Positions 4,098-56,272 are shown, numbered from the stretch's first letter. The stretch is 60,741 bases of DNA from Gammaproteobacteria bacterium (GCA_029860045.1 JAOUBY010000005.1:1-60741); one strand, 5' to 3'. The notes: generated from the letters alone by a model not told the origin. A program made the numbers and translations.

Positions 4098-5399
4098 ATG
4101 ACCGAACACCTGATCATTGTTTATGGCCTTCCGATGCTGTTGATATGGGCCGGCTACCTGACATTGCGCAACCTGAAACAGTCCAGGGCGCATTCACAGA
4201 TGCTGGCCGCGCAGGCAGCCGGACTCACCCAACCGGCATCACTGCATCCCGTGATCAATAGCACTGTGTGTATCGGCTGCAGCTCCTGCATCAGTGCATG
4301 CCCGGAACAGAACGTGCTGGGCCTGATCCGCGACAAGGCCGAACTGATCAACCCCACGCACTGTATCGGACACGGCGCCTGCAATACTGCCTGCCCGATG
4401 AATGCCATCAGCCTGGTATTCGGTACCGCAGAACGCGGCGTGGACATTCCACTAGTGTCTCCGGATTTCGAAACCAACGTACCGGGCATCTATATCGCCG
4501 GTGAACTCGGTGGCATGGGGCTGATACGCAACGCGGTGGAACAGGGGCGCCAGGCAATGGCATCTATTATCCGTTCACGCCGGCAGCAAACCGGGCAGCA
4601 GCTCGATGTGCTGATTGTCGGTGCCGGACCGGCCGGACTGTCGGCCAGCCTGGCCGCACACGAGCAGGGCCTGCGCTACATCACCGTTGAACAGGACTCG
4701 CTGGGCGGCACGGTTGCGCACTTCCCGCGCGGCAAGGTAGTCATGACTGCACCGGTCAAGCTGCCAATCGTCGGGAAAATGAATTTCAGGGAGGTATCCA
4801 AGGAAGCCTTGCTGGAATTCTGGGAGAAAGTCATAGCTGACACTGGCGTTGACATCAATTTCAGCGAACGCGTCGAAACGATCAGTCCGGAAGGTAAAGG
4901 ATTTGCGGTAAAGACGGCATGCAATAGTTACCAGGCCGCGTCCGTGCTGATTGCCATTGGCCGGCGCGGCACACCACGCAGGCTTGGCGTGCCTGGTGAA
5001 GATTCTGCCAAGGTCGTGTACCGGCTGGTTGACCCGGAACAGTATCGCGGGCAAAGCGTGCTGGTCGTTGGCGGGGGCGACAGTGCACTGGAAGCCGCGG
5101 CAAGTATTGCCGAACAACCCGGAACCTGTGTCAGCCTGTCCTACCGCAGCGCATCATTCTCTCGGGCCAAGGAGAAAAACCGTATCCGCGTGGCTGAACT
5201 CAGCGACAGTGGCAGACTGAAAGTGCTGATGTCCTCCAATGTCATGTCCATTAACGATGCTGATGTTGTCATCGAGCAACAGGGCACACAGATACAACTG
5301 GGAAACGACGCGGTTATTGTCTGCGCAGGCGGCATACTGCCCACCGCATTTCTTCAAAAGACCGGCATCGAGGTAGAAACAAAATATGGCACCAGCTGA
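4098..5399 (+). CDS. Membrane-anchored ferredoxin-domain FAD/NAD(P)-dependent oxidoreductase (TrxR/YpdA-like)
   Basis: N-terminal TM helix. CIGCSSCISAC and CIGHGACNTAC ferredoxin motifs. TNVPGIYIAGE, GAGPAG and VVGGGDSA nucleotide-binding motifs. Confidence 0.88.
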   Translation: MTEHLIIVYGLPMLLIWAGYLTLRNLKQSRAHSQMLAAQAAGLTQPASLHPVINSTVCIGCSSCISACPEQNVLGLIRDKAELINPTHCIGHGACNTACPMNAISLVFGTAERGVDIPLVSPDFETNVPGIYIAGELGGMGLIRNAVEQGRQAMASIIRSRRQQTGQQLDVLIVGAGPAGLSASLAAHEQGLRYITVEQDSLGGTVAHFPRGKVVMTAPVKLPIVGKMNFREVSKEALLEFWEKVIADTGVDINFSERVETISPEGKGFAVKTACNSYQAASVLIAIGRRGTPRRLGVPGEDSAKVVYRLVDPEQYRGQSVLVVGGGDSALEAAASIAEQPGTCVSLSYRSASFSRAKEKNRIRVAELSDSGRLKVLMSSNVMSINDADVVIEQQGTQIQLGNDAVIVCAGGILPTAFLQKTGIEVETKYGTS

Positions 5400-7449
5400 C
5401 ATGACCAGGAGCACCTGGCATACATTCCCCCTGGGCGTCATGGCGACGCTGGCGCGTGTCTGCCTGCTTTGCATGCTGTCAGCACTGTGCAACCCGTCAG
5501 TTACGCTTGCGGACACTACCAAACTGGATGAATACCATGCCGCGGTACGTGTGCGCGACATGGACAGGGCAGCGAAAATTCTCTTGCCGCTGGCCAGGGA
5601 CGGCATGGCGGAGGCCCAGTACCAGCTGGCCGCGCTGTACCGCTCGGGCAATGGAGTAGAAAAGGACCACCGTATGGCATTCCAGTGGCTGCAGAAGGCA
5701 GCTGCACAGGACCATGCACAGGCACAGTACAACCTTGGTGTCATGTACGAACAGGGCTGGGGTACCGAAGCAGATTCGAAGAATGCCTTGCACTGGTACC
5801 GGCTTGCCGCCAGCCACGGACACAAAATGGCTGTCCGTAAACTGGAAGACACTCCTGCAGACAATGCAATTCAGAGTGATGTCAGCGCAGAAGAATTGTT
5901 ACGCCGCGCGGTCATCAGGGACGACCTGTCATCCACCCGTTCCCTGCTTGTGGCCGGCGCGGATGTCGATAGTAGCGACGATTACCAGAGAACAATCCTG
6001 ATGGATGCCGCAGAACTGGGTAACCCCGAGATCTTCGCACTGCTGGTTAGCCACAGCAGAAAACCGGACTTACAGGATGCCAGCGGCGAAACCGCTCTGC
6101 ATATCGCAGTCAGTAACGACCGCCAGCCGATCGTAAAACTACTGCTTTCAGCGGGGGCCAGCGCCGGCATCGCGGATCAACGCGGTAACACGCCACTTAT
6201 GATTGCCGCCGGCAGAAACCAGCTCACCATTTTCAGAGCACTGCTTGACAGTCACTCACGCCCCGAAGCCAGTAACAGCGCCGGACTGACGGCTGCTGAT
6301 ATTGCTGCGCGCAAGCAAAACGAAAAAATCCTGAAACTGTTGTCGGGGCATGGCATATACCCTGCCCGAAGCCATACAAAGTCACCCGCACATGCCTCGG
6401 AACTGCTCGCTCTGCAGGAAGAAACAGCGGCAGACAGACCTTCACCGCAGCATGCCATGTCTCCACTAAACGAGGCAGCATGGCGCGGACAGGAAAACAT
6501 CGTGCGCGAACTCATCAGGCAAGACGCCAGCATCAACAGCCGTGATAGCGAAGGTCATACCGCATTGTCGCGCGCCGCATGGAAGGGACACAGTGCAATT
6601 GTCGAATTACTCCTGGACAGTGGAGCCCGCGCGGACATTGTACTCGATGGCGGCATAACGCCGCTGATGTACGGCACGCTCTCGGGTGATGATGCTACGG
6701 TTGTTGCATTACTGGATAGCGGCGTTGATACCAACGCCCGACAGCACGACGGACGCACCGCATTACACCTGGCTGTAGCCGGCGACTACACAGATATTGT
6801 CCGGCTACTGCTGTTACATCAGGCCGACATCGCGCTGGCCGATTCAGATGACAGAACCGTGCTGATGCTGGCAGCGCAGCTCGACAGTCCGCACATACTG
6901 GGAGACCTGCTGGACCGCAACCCCGCCATCAATGCCCGCGACCGCAATGCACATACGGCACTCTGGCACGCAACCCGCAATGGGCTGCCACGTAACACCG
7001 GTTTACTGCTGCAGCGGGGCGCCGATCCGGAGGTTAGTGACCGCAAGGGTCATACCGCGCTGACACTGGCTGCCTCACGGGCAGACAAGGTAATCGCCAA
7101 GCAGCTGGTCAGGCACAAGGCCGATATCAACGTCCGCACCCATGATGAAAACACGCCCCTGATGCTGGCCGCACAGGCGGGTGCTGACGGGCTTGCACAA
7201 CACCTGATCGATTCCGGCGCCGAGGTGAATGCCAGGAACCGGCAGGGCGATACCGCGCTGATGCTGGCCGTCGCCCGTGGCGAGACGGTAACTGTCCGCA
7301 CCCTGCTGGAAGGCGGCGCGGATCTGCGCATCCGTAACAACAGCCGCGCACGGGCACGCGATATTGCCACCGCCGGGGGTTACGACAATATATTAGATCT
7401 GCTGAATAAACATGAGTCCCGGTCCAGCTGGAAGGCCAAATGGTTCTGA
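5386..7449 (+). CDS. Exported Sel1-repeat plus ankyrin-repeat protein
   Basis: Signal-like N-terminus. Sel1 repeats (AQYQLAALY..G.GV, AQYNLGVMY..G.G). Many ankyrin repeats (GxTAL/TPL..A). Confidence 0.9.
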   Translation: MAPADMTRSTWHTFPLGVMATLARVCLLCMLSALCNPSVTLADTTKLDEYHAAVRVRDMDRAAKILLPLARDGMAEAQYQLAALYRSGNGVEKDHRMAFQWLQKAAAQDHAQAQYNLGVMYEQGWGTEADSKNALHWYRLAASHGHKMAVRKLEDTPADNAIQSDVSAEELLRRAVIRDDLSSTRSLLVAGADVDSSDDYQRTILMDAAELGNPEIFALLVSHSRKPDLQDASGETALHIAVSNDRQPIVKLLLSAGASAGIADQRGNTPLMIAAGRNQLTIFRALLDSHSRPEASNSAGLTAADIAARKQNEKILKLLSGHGIYPARSHTKSPAHASELLALQEETAADRPSPQHAMSPLNEAAWRGQENIVRELIRQDASINSRDSEGHTALSRAAWKGHSAIVELLLDSGARADIVLDGGITPLMYGTLSGDDATVVALLDSGVDTNARQHDGRTALHLAVAGDYTDIVRLLLLHQADIALADSDDRTVLMLAAQLDSPHILGDLLDRNPAINARDRNAHTALWHATRNGLPRNTGLLLQRGADPEVSDRKGHTALTLAASRADKVIAKQLVRHKADINVRTHDENTPLMLAAQAGADGLAQHLIDSGAEVNARNRQGDTALMLAVARGETVTVRTLLEGGADLRIRNNSRARARDIATAGGYDNILDLLNKHESRSSWKAKWF

Positions 7450-7450
7450 A

Positions 7451-7464
7451 TTGATCTATGTCAA
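7451..7464 (+). promoter_or_regulatory. FNR/DNR box of the candidate sRNA promoter
   Basis: TTGAT-CTAT-GTCAA, with extended -10 TG-a-CAGTAT at 7484-7492. Confidence 0.65.
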
Positions 7465-7498
7465 TGTCTCAGCAGCGCGCACCTGACAGTATGTACCC

Positions 7499-7561
7499 AT
7501 GTTGTGACATTGAGCTTGCAACATCTCCCACACTTCGCGGGCCTTGTGCCCGCGTCTTTTT
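7499..7561 (+). ncRNA. Candidate anaerobically induced small RNA
   Basis: FNR box at -41.5. 5' hairpin 7499-7524, CU-rich linker CTCCCACACTT, then an intrinsic terminator. No ORF recognised. Confidence 0.5.
7536..7561 (+). terminator. Rho-independent terminator
   Basis: CGCGGGC-cttgt-GCCCGCG followed by tcttttt. Confidence 0.75.
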
Positions 7562-7606
7562 GCCTGTTGACCTGCTCTGGCACACAGGAATCCTTAAGAA
7601 AACCGG

Positions 7607-8065
7607 TTAGCGCGCACTGAGAACGTCGTGAAAGATCGATCGCAGATCGCTCTCCCAGCGCGCAAAGAAAACAGGATCAATCGCATCACCTGCAATCCGG
7701 GCATACACTCCCGGGTTAATCGTCACCAGCACTGTCTGTCCGCCCTCGGCAAAAATGGAGATTTTCGGGGGCATGTAGGGGATCAGCTGCGGCGCCTTCT
7801 CTGTCAACATGCGGATTTCATCGATCTTGCCGGCAAACACGATACGGTACTTGTCAGTCGGGTAACCCATGCCGGTCAGCCCGATATCAATACGCTGCAC
7901 CCGTGATACCGTGTAGCCATGTCCGGTAATGGATTCCTGCAATGCCAGCATGGTCTCGGGAAACGGTAACACCGAACGTATCATGATCATGTCTTCAGCC
8001 GCTGCCGTCACCGTGACCTGTAGTAACAGCCACACCAGCAGCACTTGCAGAGTACTTTTTCTCAC
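7607..8065 (-). CDS. DUF302-like exported protein
   Basis: GTG 8065 overlaps the upstream stop. Signal peptide. DUF302-like pattern (FPETM..L..SI..HGY.V; P.KISIF.EG..T.L..INP). Confidence 0.72.
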   Translation of the reverse strand: MRKSTLQVLLVWLLLQVTVTAAAEDMIMIRSVLPFPETMLALQESITGHGYTVSRVQRIDIGLTGMGYPTDKYRIVFAGKIDEIRMLTEKAPQLIPYMPPKISIFAEGGQTVLVTINPGVYARIAGDAIDPVFFARWESDLRSIFHDVLSAR

Positions 8066-9096
8066 AGCGTCGCCTCCTCCATGATCTCCAGGTACACCGC
8101 GCGCATGCGCCTGCAATATTCATCCAGATCGGAATTGTTAAACAGGTGACTGAGGTACGGGGGGTTAAGGGTACTGATGGTCACCTTGCCGCCCTGCTCC
8201 GTTACCGTGACCCGGCAGGGCAGGAATATACCCACACGCGGGTCAACTGCCAGCGCCTCATACAGGAACCTGAAATTACAGAAATGCAGGATGACCTGCT
8301 GCTGGTTCTCCTGCGCTTTCTCTACCAGTCCGTGTTCCAGGGTATCGGACCGGATCAGGACGAAATTCTGGCTGATGATGGCCTGTTTGAGGTTTTCGAC
8401 GGTTTCCTCAATCGAGTAAGGTGAGTCAACCGTTATTGTCGCCAGTTCACCGGTTTTATCTGCTGCCTTGACGGGGTCCTTGCTCTCGAAGGACCTCACG
8501 TAACTGACCAGGTCATCGATATCGCGCTCGGACAGGCCCTGCTCAAGGAAGGAACGCATTGGCGAGCCTTTACGCCCGAACTGCAAGGTGTGCTTTATCA
8601 TGGCGTCTGTCGCGGCGCGCAGGAAGCCGCTGTTGTTGAGCGCCGGCGCAATAATTGGCTGGTCCCGATGACGTGAAAGGGTAATACCTGTCCCTCTCCC
8701 CCCCTCGCCACTGGCCCCGTGACAACCTGCACAACGGGTGGCAAACAGTGCCTTGCCATGCTGCGCATCGCCCGACACCGGTGTCGACGCGTAAACCGGA
8801 GCCGGTTGCTTCGACCAGCTACGTATGAAGGCCACAATCGCGTTGGTCTGCGCATCACTCAATGCACTGAAGGCAGGCATGACCCGGCCGGGGCGTCCGT
8901 AACGTATGCTGATAGCCAGAAACCGGTCATCGACGCTGTCGAGAAAGGACGGCAACGACAGCGGCACACCGACACCACCACCGCCCTTGTCGCCATGACA
9001 GGCCGCACAGTGGCTTGCATACAGGGCCGTGCCATCCGGCGCAGCAACGGCAACCAGGCTAACAGCAAGTAAAAAAAGTCCAATAATCAAACGCAT
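8062..9096 (-). CDS. Diheme cytochrome c fused to a DUF302 domain
   Basis: Signal peptide. CAACH..MP and CAGCH..M motifs. C-terminal DUF302 (ETVENLKQAI..FCN..LPCRVTV.E..G.VTI). Confidence 0.85.
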   Translation of the reverse strand: MRLIIGLFLLAVSLVAVAAPDGTALYASHCAACHGDKGGGGVGVPLSLPSFLDSVDDRFLAISIRYGRPGRVMPAFSALSDAQTNAIVAFIRSWSKQPAPVYASTPVSGDAQHGKALFATRCAGCHGASGEGGRGTGITLSRHRDQPIIAPALNNSGFLRAATDAMIKHTLQFGRKGSPMRSFLEQGLSERDIDDLVSYVRSFESKDPVKAADKTGELATITVDSPYSIEETVENLKQAIISQNFVLIRSDTLEHGLVEKAQENQQQVILHFCNFRFLYEALAVDPRVGIFLPCRVTVTEQGGKVTISTLNPPYLSHLFNNSDLDEYCRRMRAVYLEIMEEATL

Positions 9097-9181
9097 AATC
9101 AGGATAATCTCCCGTGGGCGCACACCTTTAATAATAAGAAATCAACGTTATAATAATATTATCATATATATGTATGTTTTT

Positions 9182-9195
9182 TTGACGCAGGTCAA
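9182..9195. promoter_or_regulatory. FNR-type box in the divergent cytochrome c/sgp promoter
   Basis: TTGAC-GCAG-GTCAA. Confidence 0.55.
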
Positions 9196-9272
9196 TGCTC
9201 CTTGGATCCAATTCAGCAATCATAATGCTGTCTATAATTCTGTATGGACTCATTGTAAAGGAGGATTTACCG

Positions 9273-9698
9273 ATGAAAAGCTTGAAAATGACAATTGCAA
9301 TTGCCGCAATCGCCGGACTGGCCGCACTGCCGATGACATCTGCCCATGCATGGGGTGGTTGGGGTCCGTGGAGCGGTAATAATGGCTGGGGCAACGACGG
9401 TTGGGGCGACGGCAGTGGCGACTTCGACGGCGACTTCAACATGGGCTTCAGCGGCGGCGGCCGGGGTTCCGGCTACGGTCGCGGTTACGGTCGTGGTTAT
9501 GGTCGAGGCTATGGTTATGACGGTTATGGGCCGGGTTACGGCTACGGCGGCTATCCGGGCTACGGCTACGGTGGTGGCTACCCGGGCTACGGCTACGGTG
9601 GTGGCTACCCGGGCTACGGCTATGCGCCGTACGGCGGTGTTCCCTATGGCGCACCAGCAGCTCCGGCCGCTCCGGCCGCTCCGGCCGCCAGCCAGTAA
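9273..9698 (+). CDS. Sulfur globule envelope protein (SgpA/SgpB-like)
   Basis: AGGAGG RBS. Signal peptide ending [31 protein letters not shown], then G/Y/P-rich repeats and an APAAP tail. Confidence 0.8.
9546..9623 (+). repeat. 27-bp coding tandem repeat (GGYPGYGYG x3)
   Basis: ggyggctayccgggctacggctacggt units inside the sgp-like gene. Confidence 0.8.
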
Positions 9699-10448: not shown

Positions 10449-10699
10449 TTTGCACTGAAAATGCCGCTCGCATGAGACATGCGGGCGGCGCCTGCCGTCC
10501 GGCAACCCCCTGATTCCCATCCACTCTTCTGAATTTCCTACCGGCACTTAATAGATGACGGACAGGTGCCGTTATATATCAGTGTTGTTTGCATAGTCAG
10601 TATTTGACAGGGTCCATGTCGACCCCTGCAGGCACACCTCATCATCAAGACACGCAGGCCCGCACAAGGCAACAGGCCTGCCAAAACAAGGTACCGACG

Positions 10700-12355
10700 A
10701 TGACACCGTATACGAAAACACTGGTTGGCCATCTCACAAACGTCGAGACCGGGTCGCTTTCCGCGCGCCTGGTCGAGGACAACGAGGGCAGACTGCCACG
10801 CATTTCGGCCGATGGAGATGACGATATGAGGGCCCAGCCCGGCTCCTACGTCGCCATCATCCAGGGCGACATCCGGATACTGGCCGTCATCACCTCGATC
10901 TGTGAAATGCCGGACCCGAACGGCTCGGGTAGCTGCAGGAGCATTCAGCTCATCCCGCTGGGCGAAATTGTACGCAGCGGCACCTTTCAGAACGGTATCA
11001 AGAGCTACCCGGTCACCGGCGCCGAAGTACACACCGTCGACAAGGAAGATGTTGAATCGATCTTCATCAAGTTTCGCTCACAGGGTTACGCAGTTGGCAA
11101 TGCCACCGCTGATGAAAGCATTGATGTCTGCCTCGACCCGGCCGCACTGTTTGGCCGTCACTTTGCGATCCTGGGCCAGTCAGGTGCAGGTAAATCCTGG
11201 ACTGTAGCCAACCTGTTGCAACGCGCCGTCAAGACCATGCCCAATGCGCACATCGTCCTGCTCGACCTGCATGGCGAATACAGCTGGCTGAATAATGAGG
11301 GCAAACGGCAGTATGCATTTACTCAGGATACCGCCCGCTATATCGATGCACGCGACCTGGAAATTCCCTACTGGCTGATGACCTTCTCCGAGCTGGTCGA
11401 CCTGCTGATCGATCGCGCCGATGCGTCAGCCTCATCACAGATTTCTTTTCTGCGCGACAGCGTGCATGAGCTGCGCAACAAGGCGAACAAGGACCTCGGC
11501 ATCGGCGATTTATCAATCGACGCGCCGGTCTTCTTCGACCTGCAGGAGTTGTATAAACACTTCGAGGCCGCCAACAAGATGACCTCGAACTTCGGCAAGG
11601 ACAAGGGTCCGCTGGCCGGCCTGTTTGACCAGTTCCTCATGCGCCTGCAGAGCCGCATGAACGATGTGCGTTATGACTTCCTGCTCAATCCGAAGCATCG
11701 CACCTCGTCTGATACGCTGCCCGGCCTGTTGCGGGACTTTGTCGGCCTGGGTGAGCCACGCGCACAGATCACCATTATCGACATGAGTTCGGTGCCGTTT
11801 GATGTGCGCCCTGTAGTAACTGCGCAGGTCGGACGTGTTGCGTTCGAATTCAACTACTGGAACCCGATGTTCAAGGAATTCCCGCTGTTGCTGGTCTGCG
11901 AAGAGGCACATGCCTACATTCCGCGCGATGGCAACTCGCAGTTCGAGGGTACCCGACAGTCCATGCAACGTATCGCCAAGGAGGGACGCAAGTACGGTGT
12001 AGGCCTTGCCGTGGTGACACAGCGTCCGCATGACCTGTCCGAAACGGTACTGGCCCAGTGCAATACCTTCGTTTGCCTGCGCCTGACCAACCCGGACGAC
12101 CAGGATTACGTGCGTGATCTGGTACCGGAAGCCGAGCGTGACTTTATCGACATCCTGTCATCGCTTGGCCAGGGTGAGGCCATGATCATGGGGTTGGCAG
12201 TACCTCTGCCGACTCGCGTACAACTGTTCAAGCCGGACCCGCCACCGAACAGTTCCAGCGTGGATTTCTACCAACACTGGAGCTCCGGGCTGGAAGATCT
12301 CGATGTGGATGATATTGTGAATCGCTGGCGCCGGCAGGACCGCCTGCACCGCTAG
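10700..12355 (+). CDS. HerA/DUF87-family P-loop ATPase
   Basis: N-terminal HAS-barrel-like region. RHFAILGQSGAGKS (Walker A), LDLHGEY, LVCEEAH (Walker B), KEGRKYG, TQRP. Start uncertain (10589 or 10700). Confidence 0.88.
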   Translation: MTPYTKTLVGHLTNVETGSLSARLVEDNEGRLPRISADGDDDMRAQPGSYVAIIQGDIRILAVITSICEMPDPNGSGSCRSIQLIPLGEIVRSGTFQNGIKSYPVTGAEVHTVDKEDVESIFIKFRSQGYAVGNATADESIDVCLDPAALFGRHFAILGQSGAGKSWTVANLLQRAVKTMPNAHIVLLDLHGEYSWLNNEGKRQYAFTQDTARYIDARDLEIPYWLMTFSELVDLLIDRADASASSQISFLRDSVHELRNKANKDLGIGDLSIDAPVFFDLQELYKHFEAANKMTSNFGKDKGPLAGLFDQFLMRLQSRMNDVRYDFLLNPKHRTSSDTLPGLLRDFVGLGEPRAQITIIDMSSVPFDVRPVVTAQVGRVAFEFNYWNPMFKEFPLLLVCEEAHAYIPRDGNSQFEGTRQSMQRIAKEGRKYGVGLAVVTQRPHDLSETVLAQCNTFVCLRLTNPDDQDYVRDLVPEAERDFIDILSSLGQGEAMIMGLAVPLPTRVQLFKPDPPPNSSSVDFYQHWSSGLEDLDVDDIVNRWRRQDRLHR

Positions 12356-12372: not shown

Positions 12373-13569
12373 CTATCCGGCCGCCTCTTCCTCGATCAGT
12401 TCGTCGCGCCCGATCAGGCGCAGGATCTGCTCGCGCGCGGCAAGCCCGTCCTTGTATCCAAGTTCCATCAGTTCCTTGCAGAACGGCGCGTCAAACATCA
12501 GGTAACTCATCAGTGGTCGGCCCTCGCGCGTCAATGCGCCAATCCCCTTGAGCAGGACGCGTACCGAGCGAGGGAAGTCACCCACGTGCCGGGCCACGAT
12601 CTCGCGCACGTCGGTACTCGGTGAAATTACCAGGTAATCGATCTGGCGCAGCGCTGTATCCTTGTACTCGACGCGGTTGTCCTTTGTTTCGGAGATGGTG
12701 TGGTTGATGCGCCGCATCCGTTCGATGTCAGCATCCAGGCTGTCCATGAACAGGCTGTCAAAGATATAACCGGAAATCTGCCCAAAGGAAGGATATTTGA
12801 CATCACGGTCGTCTTCCGGCGGCATGTCCTGTTTCGGGTTCCTGACACCGATAATCAGCAGGCGGTTGGCACCCATGTGCAAGGCCGGGCTCAGTGGCGC
12901 GGTCTGGCGCATTGAACCATCCCCGAAGAATTCATTGCGCAACTTGACGGCAGGAAACAGCACCGGGATTGCCGAAGACGCCATCAGGTGGTTGAGAGTC
13001 AACTCGGTTGGTTGCCCGATGCGGCGGGTACGCTTCCAGGGCTGCAGCTCCTTCAGCCCCTGGTAGAAGGTGACCGAGTTGTCACTGGTATAGCCGGATG
13101 TAGTTACTGACACGGCGCGCAAGGCGCCGCTGTCTATTGCCTGCTGGATTCTGGCAAAACGGATATGCCGTTCCATCAACTCGCGCAACGGTGAATTGTC
13201 CAGTACCGACCGGGGCTGCTTTTTTGTCAGCCCGCCGAGCAGGAACGTGGTGGCCCAGCGCCAGGCGCTGACGAAGGCCGTCCAGCCATCGGTCTTGAAT
13301 ACCTTGCCGATATGAAAGTTGGCCCAGATCCCCCACAGGCGGTCGACACCTTCCCTGAAACGGTTTGCACTGCTGGCCAGCAAGACGGCATTCAGCGCCC
13401 CTGACGAGGTGCCGCAAATCACCGGAAACGGGTTTTCCGCGTCTTCCGGCAGCATGTCGGCAATCGCCTTCAGTACCCCGGCCTGGTAGGCATTACGCGC
13501 ACCACCGCCCGGCAGGATCAGCCCCGTGACCTGCTCTTCCTGCTTCTTTTTAAATGAAATCCAGTACAT
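12373..13569 (-). CDS. Patatin-like phospholipase
   Basis: GGGARNAY glycine loop, GTSSG nucleophile, SSAIP..FP and DGS motifs. Confidence 0.92.
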   Translation of the reverse strand: MYWISFKKKQEEQVTGLILPGGGARNAYQAGVLKAIADMLPEDAENPFPVICGTSSGALNAVLLASSANRFREGVDRLWGIWANFHIGKVFKTDGWTAFVSAWRWATTFLLGGLTKKQPRSVLDNSPLRELMERHIRFARIQQAIDSGALRAVSVTTSGYTSDNSVTFYQGLKELQPWKRTRRIGQPTELTLNHLMASSAIPVLFPAVKLRNEFFGDGSMRQTAPLSPALHMGANRLLIIGVRNPKQDMPPEDDRDVKYPSFGQISGYIFDSLFMDSLDADIERMRRINHTISETKDNRVEYKDTALRQIDYLVISPSTDVREIVARHVGDFPRSVRVLLKGIGALTREGRPLMSYLMFDAPFCKELMELGYKDGLAAREQILRLIGRDELIEEEAAG

Positions 13570-15545: not shown

Positions 15546-15559
15546 TTGACAGGCGTCAA
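15546..15559 (+). promoter_or_regulatory. FNR-type box upstream of hsp20
   Basis: TTGAC-AGGC-GTCAA. Confidence 0.55.
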
Positions 15560-23780: not shown

Positions 23781-25451
23781 ATGAGCGTGAAGCGCATAAC
23801 AAGGTACGGGGTGGCACTGCTCGCCTCGTGCATGGGCCTGGCAACGACAACCGGTATTGCGTTTGCCAAAAAAGAGGCATTTGTTCCCCTTAACGAAGCA
23901 GAATTCGAACAGGCAAAAAGCATGTATTTCCAGCGCTGTGCCGGCTGCCATGGTGTTCTGCGCAAGGGCGCGACCGGTAAAAGCCTGTTACCACAGCCAA
24001 ACAAAGCCAAAAAGTCCAAGGGCACTCTCAAACTGGGGACGAAACGGCTTACCAAGATCATCAAGCTGGGCACCGAAGGTGGCATGAACAACTTCGATGA
24101 TGTCTTCTCGGACAAGCAAATCGACCTGCTGGCCCGGTATATCCAGATGGAACCGCCGATTCCGCCTGAAATGCCTCTTTCACTAATGAAGGAACGTCAC
24201 AAGGTATACATCGAACCGAAAGATTACCCGAAGAAGCCGCTGCATGGCCGCAACTGGGAGAATTTCTTCGTGGTCATCGAGCGTGATGCCGGCAAGATTG
24301 CCATTATCGATGGTGACAAGCATGAAATTGTTGACCATATTGACACCGGCTATGCGGTACACGTTATCAAGGCGACAGAACATCACGACAAGGAAAAACC
24401 GGTCGGCGGTGTTGCCGGCCGCTTCTGGTATACCCAGGGCCGTGATGGCAAGATGACCAAGATCGATCTGTGGCAAAAGCCTGGCAGTATGCTGGTGGCT
24501 GAGGCGCAGATGGCCTACGATGCACGCGACGTTGCCGTATCCGGTGATGGCAAGTATGTCATCGGTGGCGGGTACTGGCCCCCACACTTCGTAATTCTCG
24601 ACGCAATTACCATGGAGCCACTGAAAGTAGTTTCAACCCGTGGCATCAATATCGATGGTGACTACGTCAACGAGTCTCGCGTGGCCGCGATCTACACCAC
24701 GCCGGGCCAGTCTTCCTTCTGGGTTGCCATGAAGGAACTGGGGCAGATGTGGCAGGTCAACTACACCGACCTCGACAACCTCGCGATCAAACAGGTCAAT
24801 TCGGCGAAGTTCCTGCACGATGGATTCTTCGACCCGACCGGCCGTTACTTCCAGATAGCCGCCAACGCATCGAACAAGATGGTTATCGTCGACTCCAACA
24901 CCGGTAAGCTGGAAGCAATGATCGACACCGCCAAGTTGCCGCACCCGGGTCCGGGCGCCAACTGGAACGACCCGCAATGCGGACCTGTAGGTGGCACCAC
25001 CCACCTCGGCGAAGGCAAGGTCACCGTCTGGGGTAACGATCCCAAGGGTCACAAGAAAGAGGCCTGGAAGATCTGCTACGAAGTTGAAACGGACGGTGCC
25101 GGAGTATTTATCCGTACCCATCCGACATCTGACTTTGTCTGGGCAGACCAGACCAAGCACCCGGAACCTGTAATCCAGCAGAGCGTCAAGGTCATTGACA
25201 AGAAGACACGGAAAGTTGTCAAAACCATTCGGGTGACCGAGGAAGAAGGCAAGGCCGCAGTGCACATGGAGTTCAACAAGGATGGCTCAGAGGTGTGGGT
25301 TTCGGTCTGGAACCGCAAGGACAACAAGAACCCCACTGGTGAAATCGTGGTCTACGATGCCAAGACTCTCAAGGAGAAGAAACGCATCAAGGGCCTGACG
25401 ACACCAACTGGCAAGTTCAATGTTTACAATCGTACCAACCACGTAACGTGA
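23781..25451 (+). CDS. nirS: Cytochrome cd1 nitrite reductase
   Basis: YFQRCAGCHGVLRKGATGK, TGYAVH, YWPPHF, FLHDG.FD.TGRYF, PHPGPGAN, TPTGKFNVYN. Confidence 0.96.
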   Translation: MSVKRITRYGVALLASCMGLATTTGIAFAKKEAFVPLNEAEFEQAKSMYFQRCAGCHGVLRKGATGKSLLPQPNKAKKSKGTLKLGTKRLTKIIKLGTEGGMNNFDDVFSDKQIDLLARYIQMEPPIPPEMPLSLMKERHKVYIEPKDYPKKPLHGRNWENFFVVIERDAGKIAIIDGDKHEIVDHIDTGYAVHVIKATEHHDKEKPVGGVAGRFWYTQGRDGKMTKIDLWQKPGSMLVAEAQMAYDARDVAVSGDGKYVIGGGYWPPHFVILDAITMEPLKVVSTRGINIDGDYVNESRVAAIYTTPGQSSFWVAMKELGQMWQVNYTDLDNLAIKQVNSAKFLHDGFFDPTGRYFQIAANASNKMVIVDSNTGKLEAMIDTAKLPHPGPGANWNDPQCGPVGGTTHLGEGKVTVWGNDPKGHKKEAWKICYEVETDGAGVFIRTHPTSDFVWADQTKHPEPVIQQSVKVIDKKTRKVVKTIRVTEEEGKAAVHMEFNKDGSEVWVSVWNRKDNKNPTGEIVVYDAKTLKEKKRIKGLTTPTGKFNVYNRTNHVT

Positions 25452-56258: not shown

Positions 56259-56272
56259 TTGACGGAGGTCAA
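56259..56272. promoter_or_regulatory. FNR-type box in the divergent hyn/hyp promoter
   Basis: TTGAC-GGAG-GTCAA. Confidence 0.6.

Follow-up and report, generated by a model that had tools for sequence, protein, structure and literature searches.

Locus and genomic setting

The DNA analysed here (the window) is a 60,741-nt stretch from a Gammaproteobacteria bacterium (GCA_029860045.1 JAOUBY010000005.1:1-60741), and all positions are counted from its first letter. The features under study lie between two convergent genes (Table 1). The Sel1/ankyrin-repeat gene ends with a TGA stop codon at 7447-7449, and an FNR-type box starts 1 nt later; the predicted small RNA that follows ends 45 nt from the stop codon of the DUF302 gene facing it (gap 7561 to 7607). 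A sequence check found every element that the initial annotation had described between these genes, namely the box, an extended −10, a stem, a single-stranded tract and a terminator, at its reported place.

The ankyrin gene overlaps the end of a Fer4 and pyridine-nucleotide-disulphide oxidoreductase gene (4098-5399). Its Sel1 and ankyrin product is translationally coupled to this ferredoxin-domain flavoprotein, which occurs at 65-97% identity in many MAGs. NCBIfam matches of the ankyrin protein to Legionella Ank effectors fall far under cut-off and reflect the repeats only.

The genes of the window include those for cytochrome cd1 nitrite reductase (nirS) and paralogues, NirJ, heme d1 proteins of the siroheme-decarboxylase type, NapC/NirT, NnrS, hemerythrins, a NiFe hydrogenase with its maturation proteins, and a sulfur-globule protein. 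No CRP/FNR-family regulator gene was seen among the window ORFs scanned. A HerA-type helicase gene (10589-12355, + strand; 355 bits to the NCBIfam anti-phage-associated HerA model, under its cut-off) adjoins a patatin/CBASS-lipase-like ORF (12373-13569, − strand), and the two may be a defence module amid the respiration genes.

Boxes of the FNR type with at most one mismatch number 13 in the 60-kb window, against 1.6 expected, and none of 100 shuffles reached 13; for the TTGAC-N4-GTCAA variants the figures are 3 and 0.06. The cytochrome cd1 (nirS-like) gene at 23781 is preceded by two perfect boxes. The window is a dense anaerobic or NO regulon island, and its many boxes follow from its being an anaerobic-respiration island. 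A lone box is therefore not rare here, so the case that the small RNA gene is more than chance rests on the conservation of the whole module in relatives. This type of box is common to FNR/ANR and DNR/NNR regulators; for this reason, and in view of the TTGAC-N4-GTCAA variants in the window, we name the activator below as of either type.

Table 1. Coordinates of the small RNA gene, its neighbours and other CRP/FNR-type boxes of the window
Feature	Position	Strand	Remarks
Sel1/ankyrin-repeat gene, 687 aa	5386-7449	+	Co-directional upstream neighbour, outside the RNA; Pfam
CRP/FNR-family box TTGATctatGTCAA	7451-7464	+	TTGA...TCAA core invariant in 25/25 modules
Extended −10	7484-7492	+	TG 7484-7485, one base, CAGTAT 7487-7492; placed for a start at 7499
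Predicted small RNA, 63 nt	7499-7561	+	Start predicted from promoter geometry; fold; covariance model
5′ hairpin, 9 bp including two G-U, 8-nt loop	7499-7524	+	RNAfold
C-rich unpaired tract CTCCCACACTT, 11 nt, anti-Shine-Dalgarno-like	7525-7535	+	P(unpaired) 1.00 in the window
Rho-independent terminator, 7-bp G-C stem, 5-nt loop, tail UCUUUUU	7536-7561	+	Terminator scan, fold
DUF302 gene, 152 aa	7607-8065	−	Convergent; last gene of the cytochrome c-DUF302/DUF302 operon
Di-heme cytochrome c-DUF302 fusion gene	8062-9123	−	Stop codon overlapped by the 152-aa DUF302 gene
Second CRP/FNR-type box TTGACctgcGTCAA (− strand reading TTGACCTGCGTCAA), TTGAC-N4-GTCAA variety	9182-9195	−	99 nt upstream of the cytochrome c-DUF302 start codon
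Perfect FNR-type boxes	14942, 23410, 23567, 31359, 31754		In the window
TTGAC-N4-GTCAA boxes	15546-15559, 56259-56272		In the window

Homologous loci

Find loci. From 28 aligned DUF302 proteins, a genome search of GTDB species representatives yielded 80 loci, all from MAGs and mostly labelled uncultured Gammaproteobacteria or Ectothiorhodospiraceae. Because all 80 were fetched through the DUF302 neighbour, the linkage of the RNA to DUF302 is partly a matter of ascertainment. A blastn search with 7440-7620 matched the syntenic spot in 19 loci, with 86.6% identity over 134 nt in L001.

Module scan. The window and the 80 loci were scanned for a box (at most two mismatches) followed by a terminator. 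The 39 resulting rows comprise 25 modules, 10 unrelated hits and four rows for a further box upstream of an RNA already counted. The modules are that of the window and those of 24 loci (L001, L002, L003, L005, L008, L009, L012, L013, L015, L016, L018, L019, L020, L021, L022, L024, L026, L027, L028, L030, L032, L034, L036 and L038), with predicted RNAs of 54-96 nt. All 24 fall within the 39 loci closest to the window (DUF302 at least 67% identical to that of the window), which are from uncultured Gammaproteobacteria; the 41 more distant loci have none. Among the 39 close loci, 13 are without the module at that site and two more keep only a decayed remnant (L006 and L023, the latter without a terminator).

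Alignment. The 25 sequences were aligned from box to terminator (alignment A2, mean column identity 43%). The 20 columns that never vary comprise the TTGA and TCAA halves of the box, C-T-C in the seed, G/CCGC in the terminator stem and four T's in the tail. There are no others; variation is free in the spacer, in the loop and across the 5′ half of the RNA. Box, −10, seed and terminator are thus conserved together in 24 loci and the sequence between them is not, which supports the claim of the initial annotation that the gap holds a gene for a small RNA of its own, of about 63 nt as judged from the sequence.

Covariance model. A model (R1) was made from the 25 RNAs and applied to the window and the 80 loci (667 kb). 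It scored window positions 7495-7562 at 61.9 bits; 24 of the 25 seed members scored 45-62 bits, and L026 33 bits. The search added a single degenerate copy, that of L006 (32 bits, with half a box), and found no second copy in the window. Three other weak matches were rejected, one (L014, 8344-8404) as the terminator of another gene, without a box, and two (L048 and L042) as matches to the terminator half only. As far as sampled, the RNA family is confined to a clade of uncultured sulfur-oxidising, denitrifying Gammaproteobacteria.

Group II intron domains (RF02001, 95.7 bits; RF01998, 45.3 bits) lie at 7061-7334 (+ strand) of L005, about 2.5 kb from its RNA locus. Three loci with DUF302, cytochrome c and ankyrin genes of gammaproteobacterial type and the small RNA come from MAGs titled 'Halobacteria archaeon' (L002, L025 and L027), which are probably mis-binned or mislabelled.

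Putative promoter

The box (TTGATCTATGTCAA, 7451-7464) matches TTGAT-N4-ATCAA at nine of 10 positions. From the box centre (7457.5), 7499 is at +41.5, and TG-n-CAGTAT lies 22 nt downstream of the box. The initial annotation had placed the box 41.5 bp ahead of 7499 and paired it with an extended −10, a reading that agrees with these positions and gains from the alignment, where the spacing is fixed. When the 25 sequences are aligned on the box without gaps, information is about zero through the spacer and peaks exactly at +36 to +41 from the box start, with the consensus T/C-A-T/G-A-A-T (e.g. TCTAAT, TATAAA, CATAAT). The window hexamer, CAGTAT, agrees with TATAAT at only three of six positions and is among the weaker hexamers of the family, but it is preceded by TG.

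The fixed spacing of the −10 is the geometry of a class II CRP/FNR promoter with the box at −41.5, and the putative start site at 7499 is derived from it. Two sequence features of such a promoter were found, a TTGAT-N4-ATCAA inverted repeat and a −10 hexamer about 22 nt past the box, a −35 not being required. A generic sigma-70 promoter scan of the window reported no promoter at the RNA site; since that scan requires a −35, its silence is uninformative for class II promoters.

The sequence AGCGCGCAC is present twice, in the promoter spacer (7473-7481) and at the DUF302 stop codon (7609-7617). Long-range folds of both one strand and the other have the copies paired; they are not conserved in the alignment, and the pairing is probably chance.

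Predicted RNA structure

RNAfold gave 7499-7561 a minimum free energy of −20.2 kcal/mol, compared with a mean of −12.8 for dinucleotide shuffles (z = −2.95); one of 200 shuffles folded as well. The predicted structure has two hairpins, one at the 5′ end and one that forms the terminator, with an exposed tract between them.

5′ hairpin. The strands of the stem are ATGTTGTGA (7499-7507) and TTGCAACAT (7516-7524). The 9-bp stem with two G-U pairs that had been described by eye is present in the fold, but covariation does not support it: in the alignment of the seven-sequence subgroup (A4) 82.5% of cells pair, and 127 of 500 shuffles do as well. The 5′ hairpins of other subgroups are unrelated to that of the window's subgroup.

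Seed. Between the 5′ hairpin and the terminator the tract CUCCCACACUU, that is CUCCCAC(ACUU), is exposed, and we take ACUCCCACACUU as the seed of the window RNA. The tract had been described as unpaired and anti-SD-like. It is predicted to be unpaired throughout in the window (P(unpaired) 1.00), and its CTCC core is invariant or nearly so in A2 (C75, T76 and C78 invariant, C77 nearly so). Across the 25 members the mean P(unpaired) of the seed is 0.80 versus 0.44 for the rest of the RNA, and it exceeds 0.7 in 18; the L021 row of this table was scored on a misplaced motif, and the true L021 seed is unpaired in the MFE structure. Variants of the seed such as ACCUCCCAC occur in L016 and L026. The RNA thus has the conserved and, by prediction, accessible seed that is looked for in a pairing sRNA. 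The longer members (L008, L009, L015 and L020, 88-96 nt) have a second C-rich motif, CCUCC/CCUCCA, in the 5′ half, displayed in a hairpin loop in L009 and L015, which suggests two pairing sites in some lineages.

Terminator. The hairpin CGCGGGC-cttgt-GCCCGCG (7536-7554), all seven pairs of which are G-C, is followed by TCTTTTT (7555-7561). Both scan and fold bear out the terminator with a U tail of the initial annotation, and over the 25 sequences it covaries: 96.6% of cells pair, three of the seven pairs show compensatory changes (22 cells), and none of 500 shuffles matches this. The stem alternates between CGGGC/GCCCG, CGGAC/GTCCG and CGGAT/ATCCG, and slid registers drop to 27-50% pairing. 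Looking for covariation in relatives, as had been suggested, therefore favours the terminator stem and not the 5′ stem. Most members have a U tail of at least five and a UU(U) just ahead of the terminator stem, features that are suggestive of the Hfq type.

Coding potential. No ORF is conserved across the family, and a coding function was rejected for this reason. The window sequence reads AUG-UUG-UGA, other members have different starts, and A2 contains many indels.

A gene of its own or the end of the ankyrin operon

The simplest alternative, named in the initial annotation as what would undo its proposal, is that the hairpin is the intrinsic terminator of the ankyrin operon and nothing else, the box being a chance or vestigial occurrence and there being no separate RNA. 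The arrangement in the window invites this reading. The box lies 1 nt past the ankyrin stop codon, the hairpin is the first + strand terminator after the ankyrin gene, FNR-type boxes are common in the window (13) and the window −10 is weak. The ankyrin gene likewise ends 0-1 nt ahead of the box in L001, L013, L021 and L028, and an ankyrin gene also ends there in L002.

To the extent that sequence can decide the matter, the relatives argue otherwise. In 18 of the 24 homologous loci other genes replace the ankyrin neighbour. A methyltransferase-like gene ends 18-303 nt ahead of the box in four of them (L003, L018, L027 and L038), and in at least 12 the upstream neighbour is divergent (L005, L019, L022; L008, L020, L030; L009, L015; L016, L026, L032, L034), so that no upstream gene could use the hairpin as a terminator there. 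Box, −10, seed and terminator are all kept where the upstream gene is divergent. With the upstream neighbour changing between loci, the module is not just the terminator of the ankyrin gene, and the complete module persists both with a divergent neighbour and behind a different gene family. Nor would a plain terminator need an invariant CUCCCAC tract, a box and a −10 at fixed spacing. We consider the terminator-only explanation very improbable. In the ankyrin setting the hairpin probably also terminates the ankyrin operon, a role that is compatible with ending the small RNA.

The convergent cytochrome c-DUF302 operon

The operon that faces the RNA gene has a CRP/FNR-type box of its own (Table 1). 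Of 38 close loci, 37 have a box similarly placed, as do 20 of the 39 distant loci that could be evaluated. In the window this box overlaps the listed start of a sulfur-globule-protein ORF (9195-9698) in an AT-rich gap (GC 0.35). As both convergent units carry CRP/FNR-type boxes, the RNA gene and the cytochrome c-DUF302 operon are probably in the same regulon.

The RNA and DUF302 genes are arranged tail to tail in all 25 modules, 7-214 nt apart. In the window and in 23 of the 24 loci, the stretch from the DUF302 stop codon to the RNA promoter showed no intrinsic terminator of the operon. Having no terminator of its own there, the operon would by read-through make a perfect antisense to the RNA and its seed.

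These facts raise the question of whether the RNA acts mainly in cis, with convergent transcription by antisense operon transcripts, or RNA-RNA duplexes, tuning the 3′ end of the operon and its stability, or with the 3′ UTR sponging the RNA. Such a role is favoured by the tail-to-tail layout in 25 of 25, by the scarcity of a terminator-like site on the DUF302 strand (a single locus among 24, the window having none) and by the boxes on both units, the operon box being shared by the window and 37 of 38 close loci. Yet the RNA's own terminator stops it ahead of DUF302, so that the two overlap only with operon read-through, and fetching the loci through DUF302 accounts for part of the linkage; of the 39 close DUF302 loci, 13 are without the RNA at the site and two more have only a decayed remnant. 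A tract that is short, single-stranded and strictly conserved while the 5′ region is free is, moreover, more typical of seeds that pair in trans. A mainly cis-acting RNA appears unlikely to us.

A more elaborate version would have the RNA and the operon as one co-regulated unit, turned on by a single FNR/DNR-type activator, in which mRNA and sRNA titrate or process each other, a sponge- or excludon-like circuit. We regard this as speculative and unlikely. If true, the sponge circuit would link the output of a respiratory operon with how much of a global anti-SD sRNA is free.

Comparison with known small RNAs

Rfam 15 at gathering score gave no match in the whole window, in agreement with the initial annotation, which had recognised no family. 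At the RNA site of 17 homologous loci there was likewise no match, the group II intron models of L005 being the only ones elsewhere. With an E-value threshold instead, the sole sub-threshold model at the window site was SorX (RF02784; 24.9 bits against a gathering score of 46.6). Among eight homologues SorX scored 24.8 bits in L001 and 20.8 in L002 and did not appear at E <= 10 in the other six, and Bp1_781 was sub-threshold in homologues (25-27 bits against a gathering score of 80). We rejected membership in either family, reading these inconsistent sub-threshold scores as a shared C-rich tract and terminator composition.

SorX does resemble the present RNA: within about 70 nt, both begin with a hairpin, continue with a CCUCCC-type tract that is single-stranded and close with a GC terminator and its U tail. 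They appear to differ in origin, for SorX is processed from an mRNA 3′ UTR whereas the present RNA has its own conserved box and −10 and occurs also without a co-directional upstream gene. According to PMC6238624, RNase E cleavage releases SorX of Rhodobacter sphaeroides from the 3′ UTR of an OmpR-type gene, and SorX is part of the oxidative-stress response of this alphaproteobacterium.

PhrS and AniS are FNR-family-activated base-pairing sRNAs, AniS being FNR-dependent, and RoxS/RsaE uses C-rich tracts against SD regions. FnrS, of about 120 nt, together with PhrS, AniS and RsaE we take to be Rfam families. No FnrS match was obtained at E <= 10 in an Rfam search of 7300-7750, and PaiI, DenR, PcrZ, RoxS/RsaE and AniS are not among the Rfam matches for the RNA region.

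FnrS is the closest in kind: it too is a stand-alone intergenic gene with an FNR-type box, pointing to anaerobic expression, and a Rho-independent terminator, and it represses mRNAs, as the present RNA would by our reading. The present RNA differs in being about half the size of FnrS, in its C-rich CUCCCAC seed and in its uncultured sulfur-oxidiser hosts. A review (PMC8139620) presents FnrS of Escherichia coli and Salmonella as an FNR-activated, Hfq-dependent intergenic sRNA that represses mRNAs, and describes the FNR/ANR and DNR/NNR regulons. It also gives further sRNAs of anaerobic or NO-responsive regulons: PaiI (P. aeruginosa), DenR (Paracoccus), PcrZ (Rhodobacter), RoxS/RsaE (Firmicutes) and AniS (Neisseria). 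The regulators of several of these are different (NarL for PaiI, ResDE for RoxS, PrrA/FnrL for PcrZ), as are their sizes and sequences.

The kind is therefore already known, that of FNR-family-activated base-pairing sRNAs such as FnrS, and the present family is new to Rfam. A literature search, at the level of its listings, returned no description of an sRNA with an FNR-type promoter from sulfur-oxidising Gammaproteobacteria.

Proposed mechanism and targets

We propose that window positions 7451-7561 are a self-contained gene for an FNR-type-activated base-pairing sRNA of a previously uncatalogued family, and put the probability of this reading at roughly 0.72. The RNA is very probably a real regulatory RNA; that it is transcribed we infer from the motifs and their conservation. 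A CRP/FNR-family activator, of the O2-sensing FNR/ANR or the NO-sensing DNR/NNR type, would bind the box at −41.5. Class II activation with the extended −10 and no −35 would then start transcription from about 7499 under low-oxygen or denitrifying conditions. The transcript is expected to end at the intrinsic terminator near 7561, giving a non-coding RNA of about 63 nt whose predicted structure is conserved. Its exposed CUCCCAC tract would most probably pair with G-rich SD-like mRNA sites (complement GUGGGAG) elsewhere in the genome, and this pairing would lower the translation or stability of target mRNAs, by analogy with the repression that FnrS exerts on its targets. The Hfq-type label of the initial annotation and the anti-SD action are likewise readings of the sequence, to be held as presumptive.

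Targets were sought in the window and at the loci. Of the pairing with ribosome binding sites that the initial annotation had envisaged, nothing beyond chance was seen at the gene starts of the window, where duplexes were no better than those of shuffled seeds: over the first starts of 61 putative window genes the best was −11.4 kcal/mol, against a shuffled-seed minimum averaging −13.5. Exact complements of the seed in the window and the 24 module loci are on the RNA's own antisense strand, except near 7566 in L005 and at 1419 in the window, neither of which is at a gene start; module-less loci have a few other chance matches. No seed complement was found at a real gene start in the 60-kb window or the 8-kb loci, a span too small to exclude targets in trans.

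Two candidates were considered and rejected. In a per-locus ranking that was noisy and partly used wrong seed picks, one duplex match recurred within cytochrome c coding sequence; it is a run of glycine codons, absent in the window. In the window AUCUCCC forms 7 bp with GGGAGAU, the ribosome binding site of the cytochrome c-DUF302 gene; because other loci keep only the generic GGAG part, this site was not accepted as a specific target.

The lack of a local mRNA target, in window and loci alike, would fit a different function for the tract, as a decoy that binds protein or is related to the ribosome (for example, one that mimics the anti-SD and so titrates a factor), or a transcript that encodes a tiny peptide. 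The 16S rRNA anti-SD is CCUCC, and the ACCUCCCAC-type variants of L016 and L026 resemble it. A peptide is at odds with the absence of a conserved ORF (AUG-UUG-stop in the window, different starts in other members, frequent indels). The binding motif of CsrA is GGA, and the RNA has no motifs of this type; as for targets, 60 kb is far too little sequence to exclude those in trans. We give these functions very little weight, and retain a base-pairing sRNA as the preferred reading.

Significance

To our knowledge, the regulatory RNAs of uncultured sulfur-oxidising denitrifiers are essentially unknown. A promoter, seed and terminator read by eye can, as here, be validated by comparative genomics alone, and support of this strength is unusual for something first noticed by eye. 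R1 is a ready covariance model for the mining of metagenomes and metatranscriptomes. In these organisms the family would serve as a compact marker of the anaerobic or NO regulon, and the RNA as an entry point to the post-transcriptional control of switching between oxygen, nitrate and sulfur metabolism in sediments.
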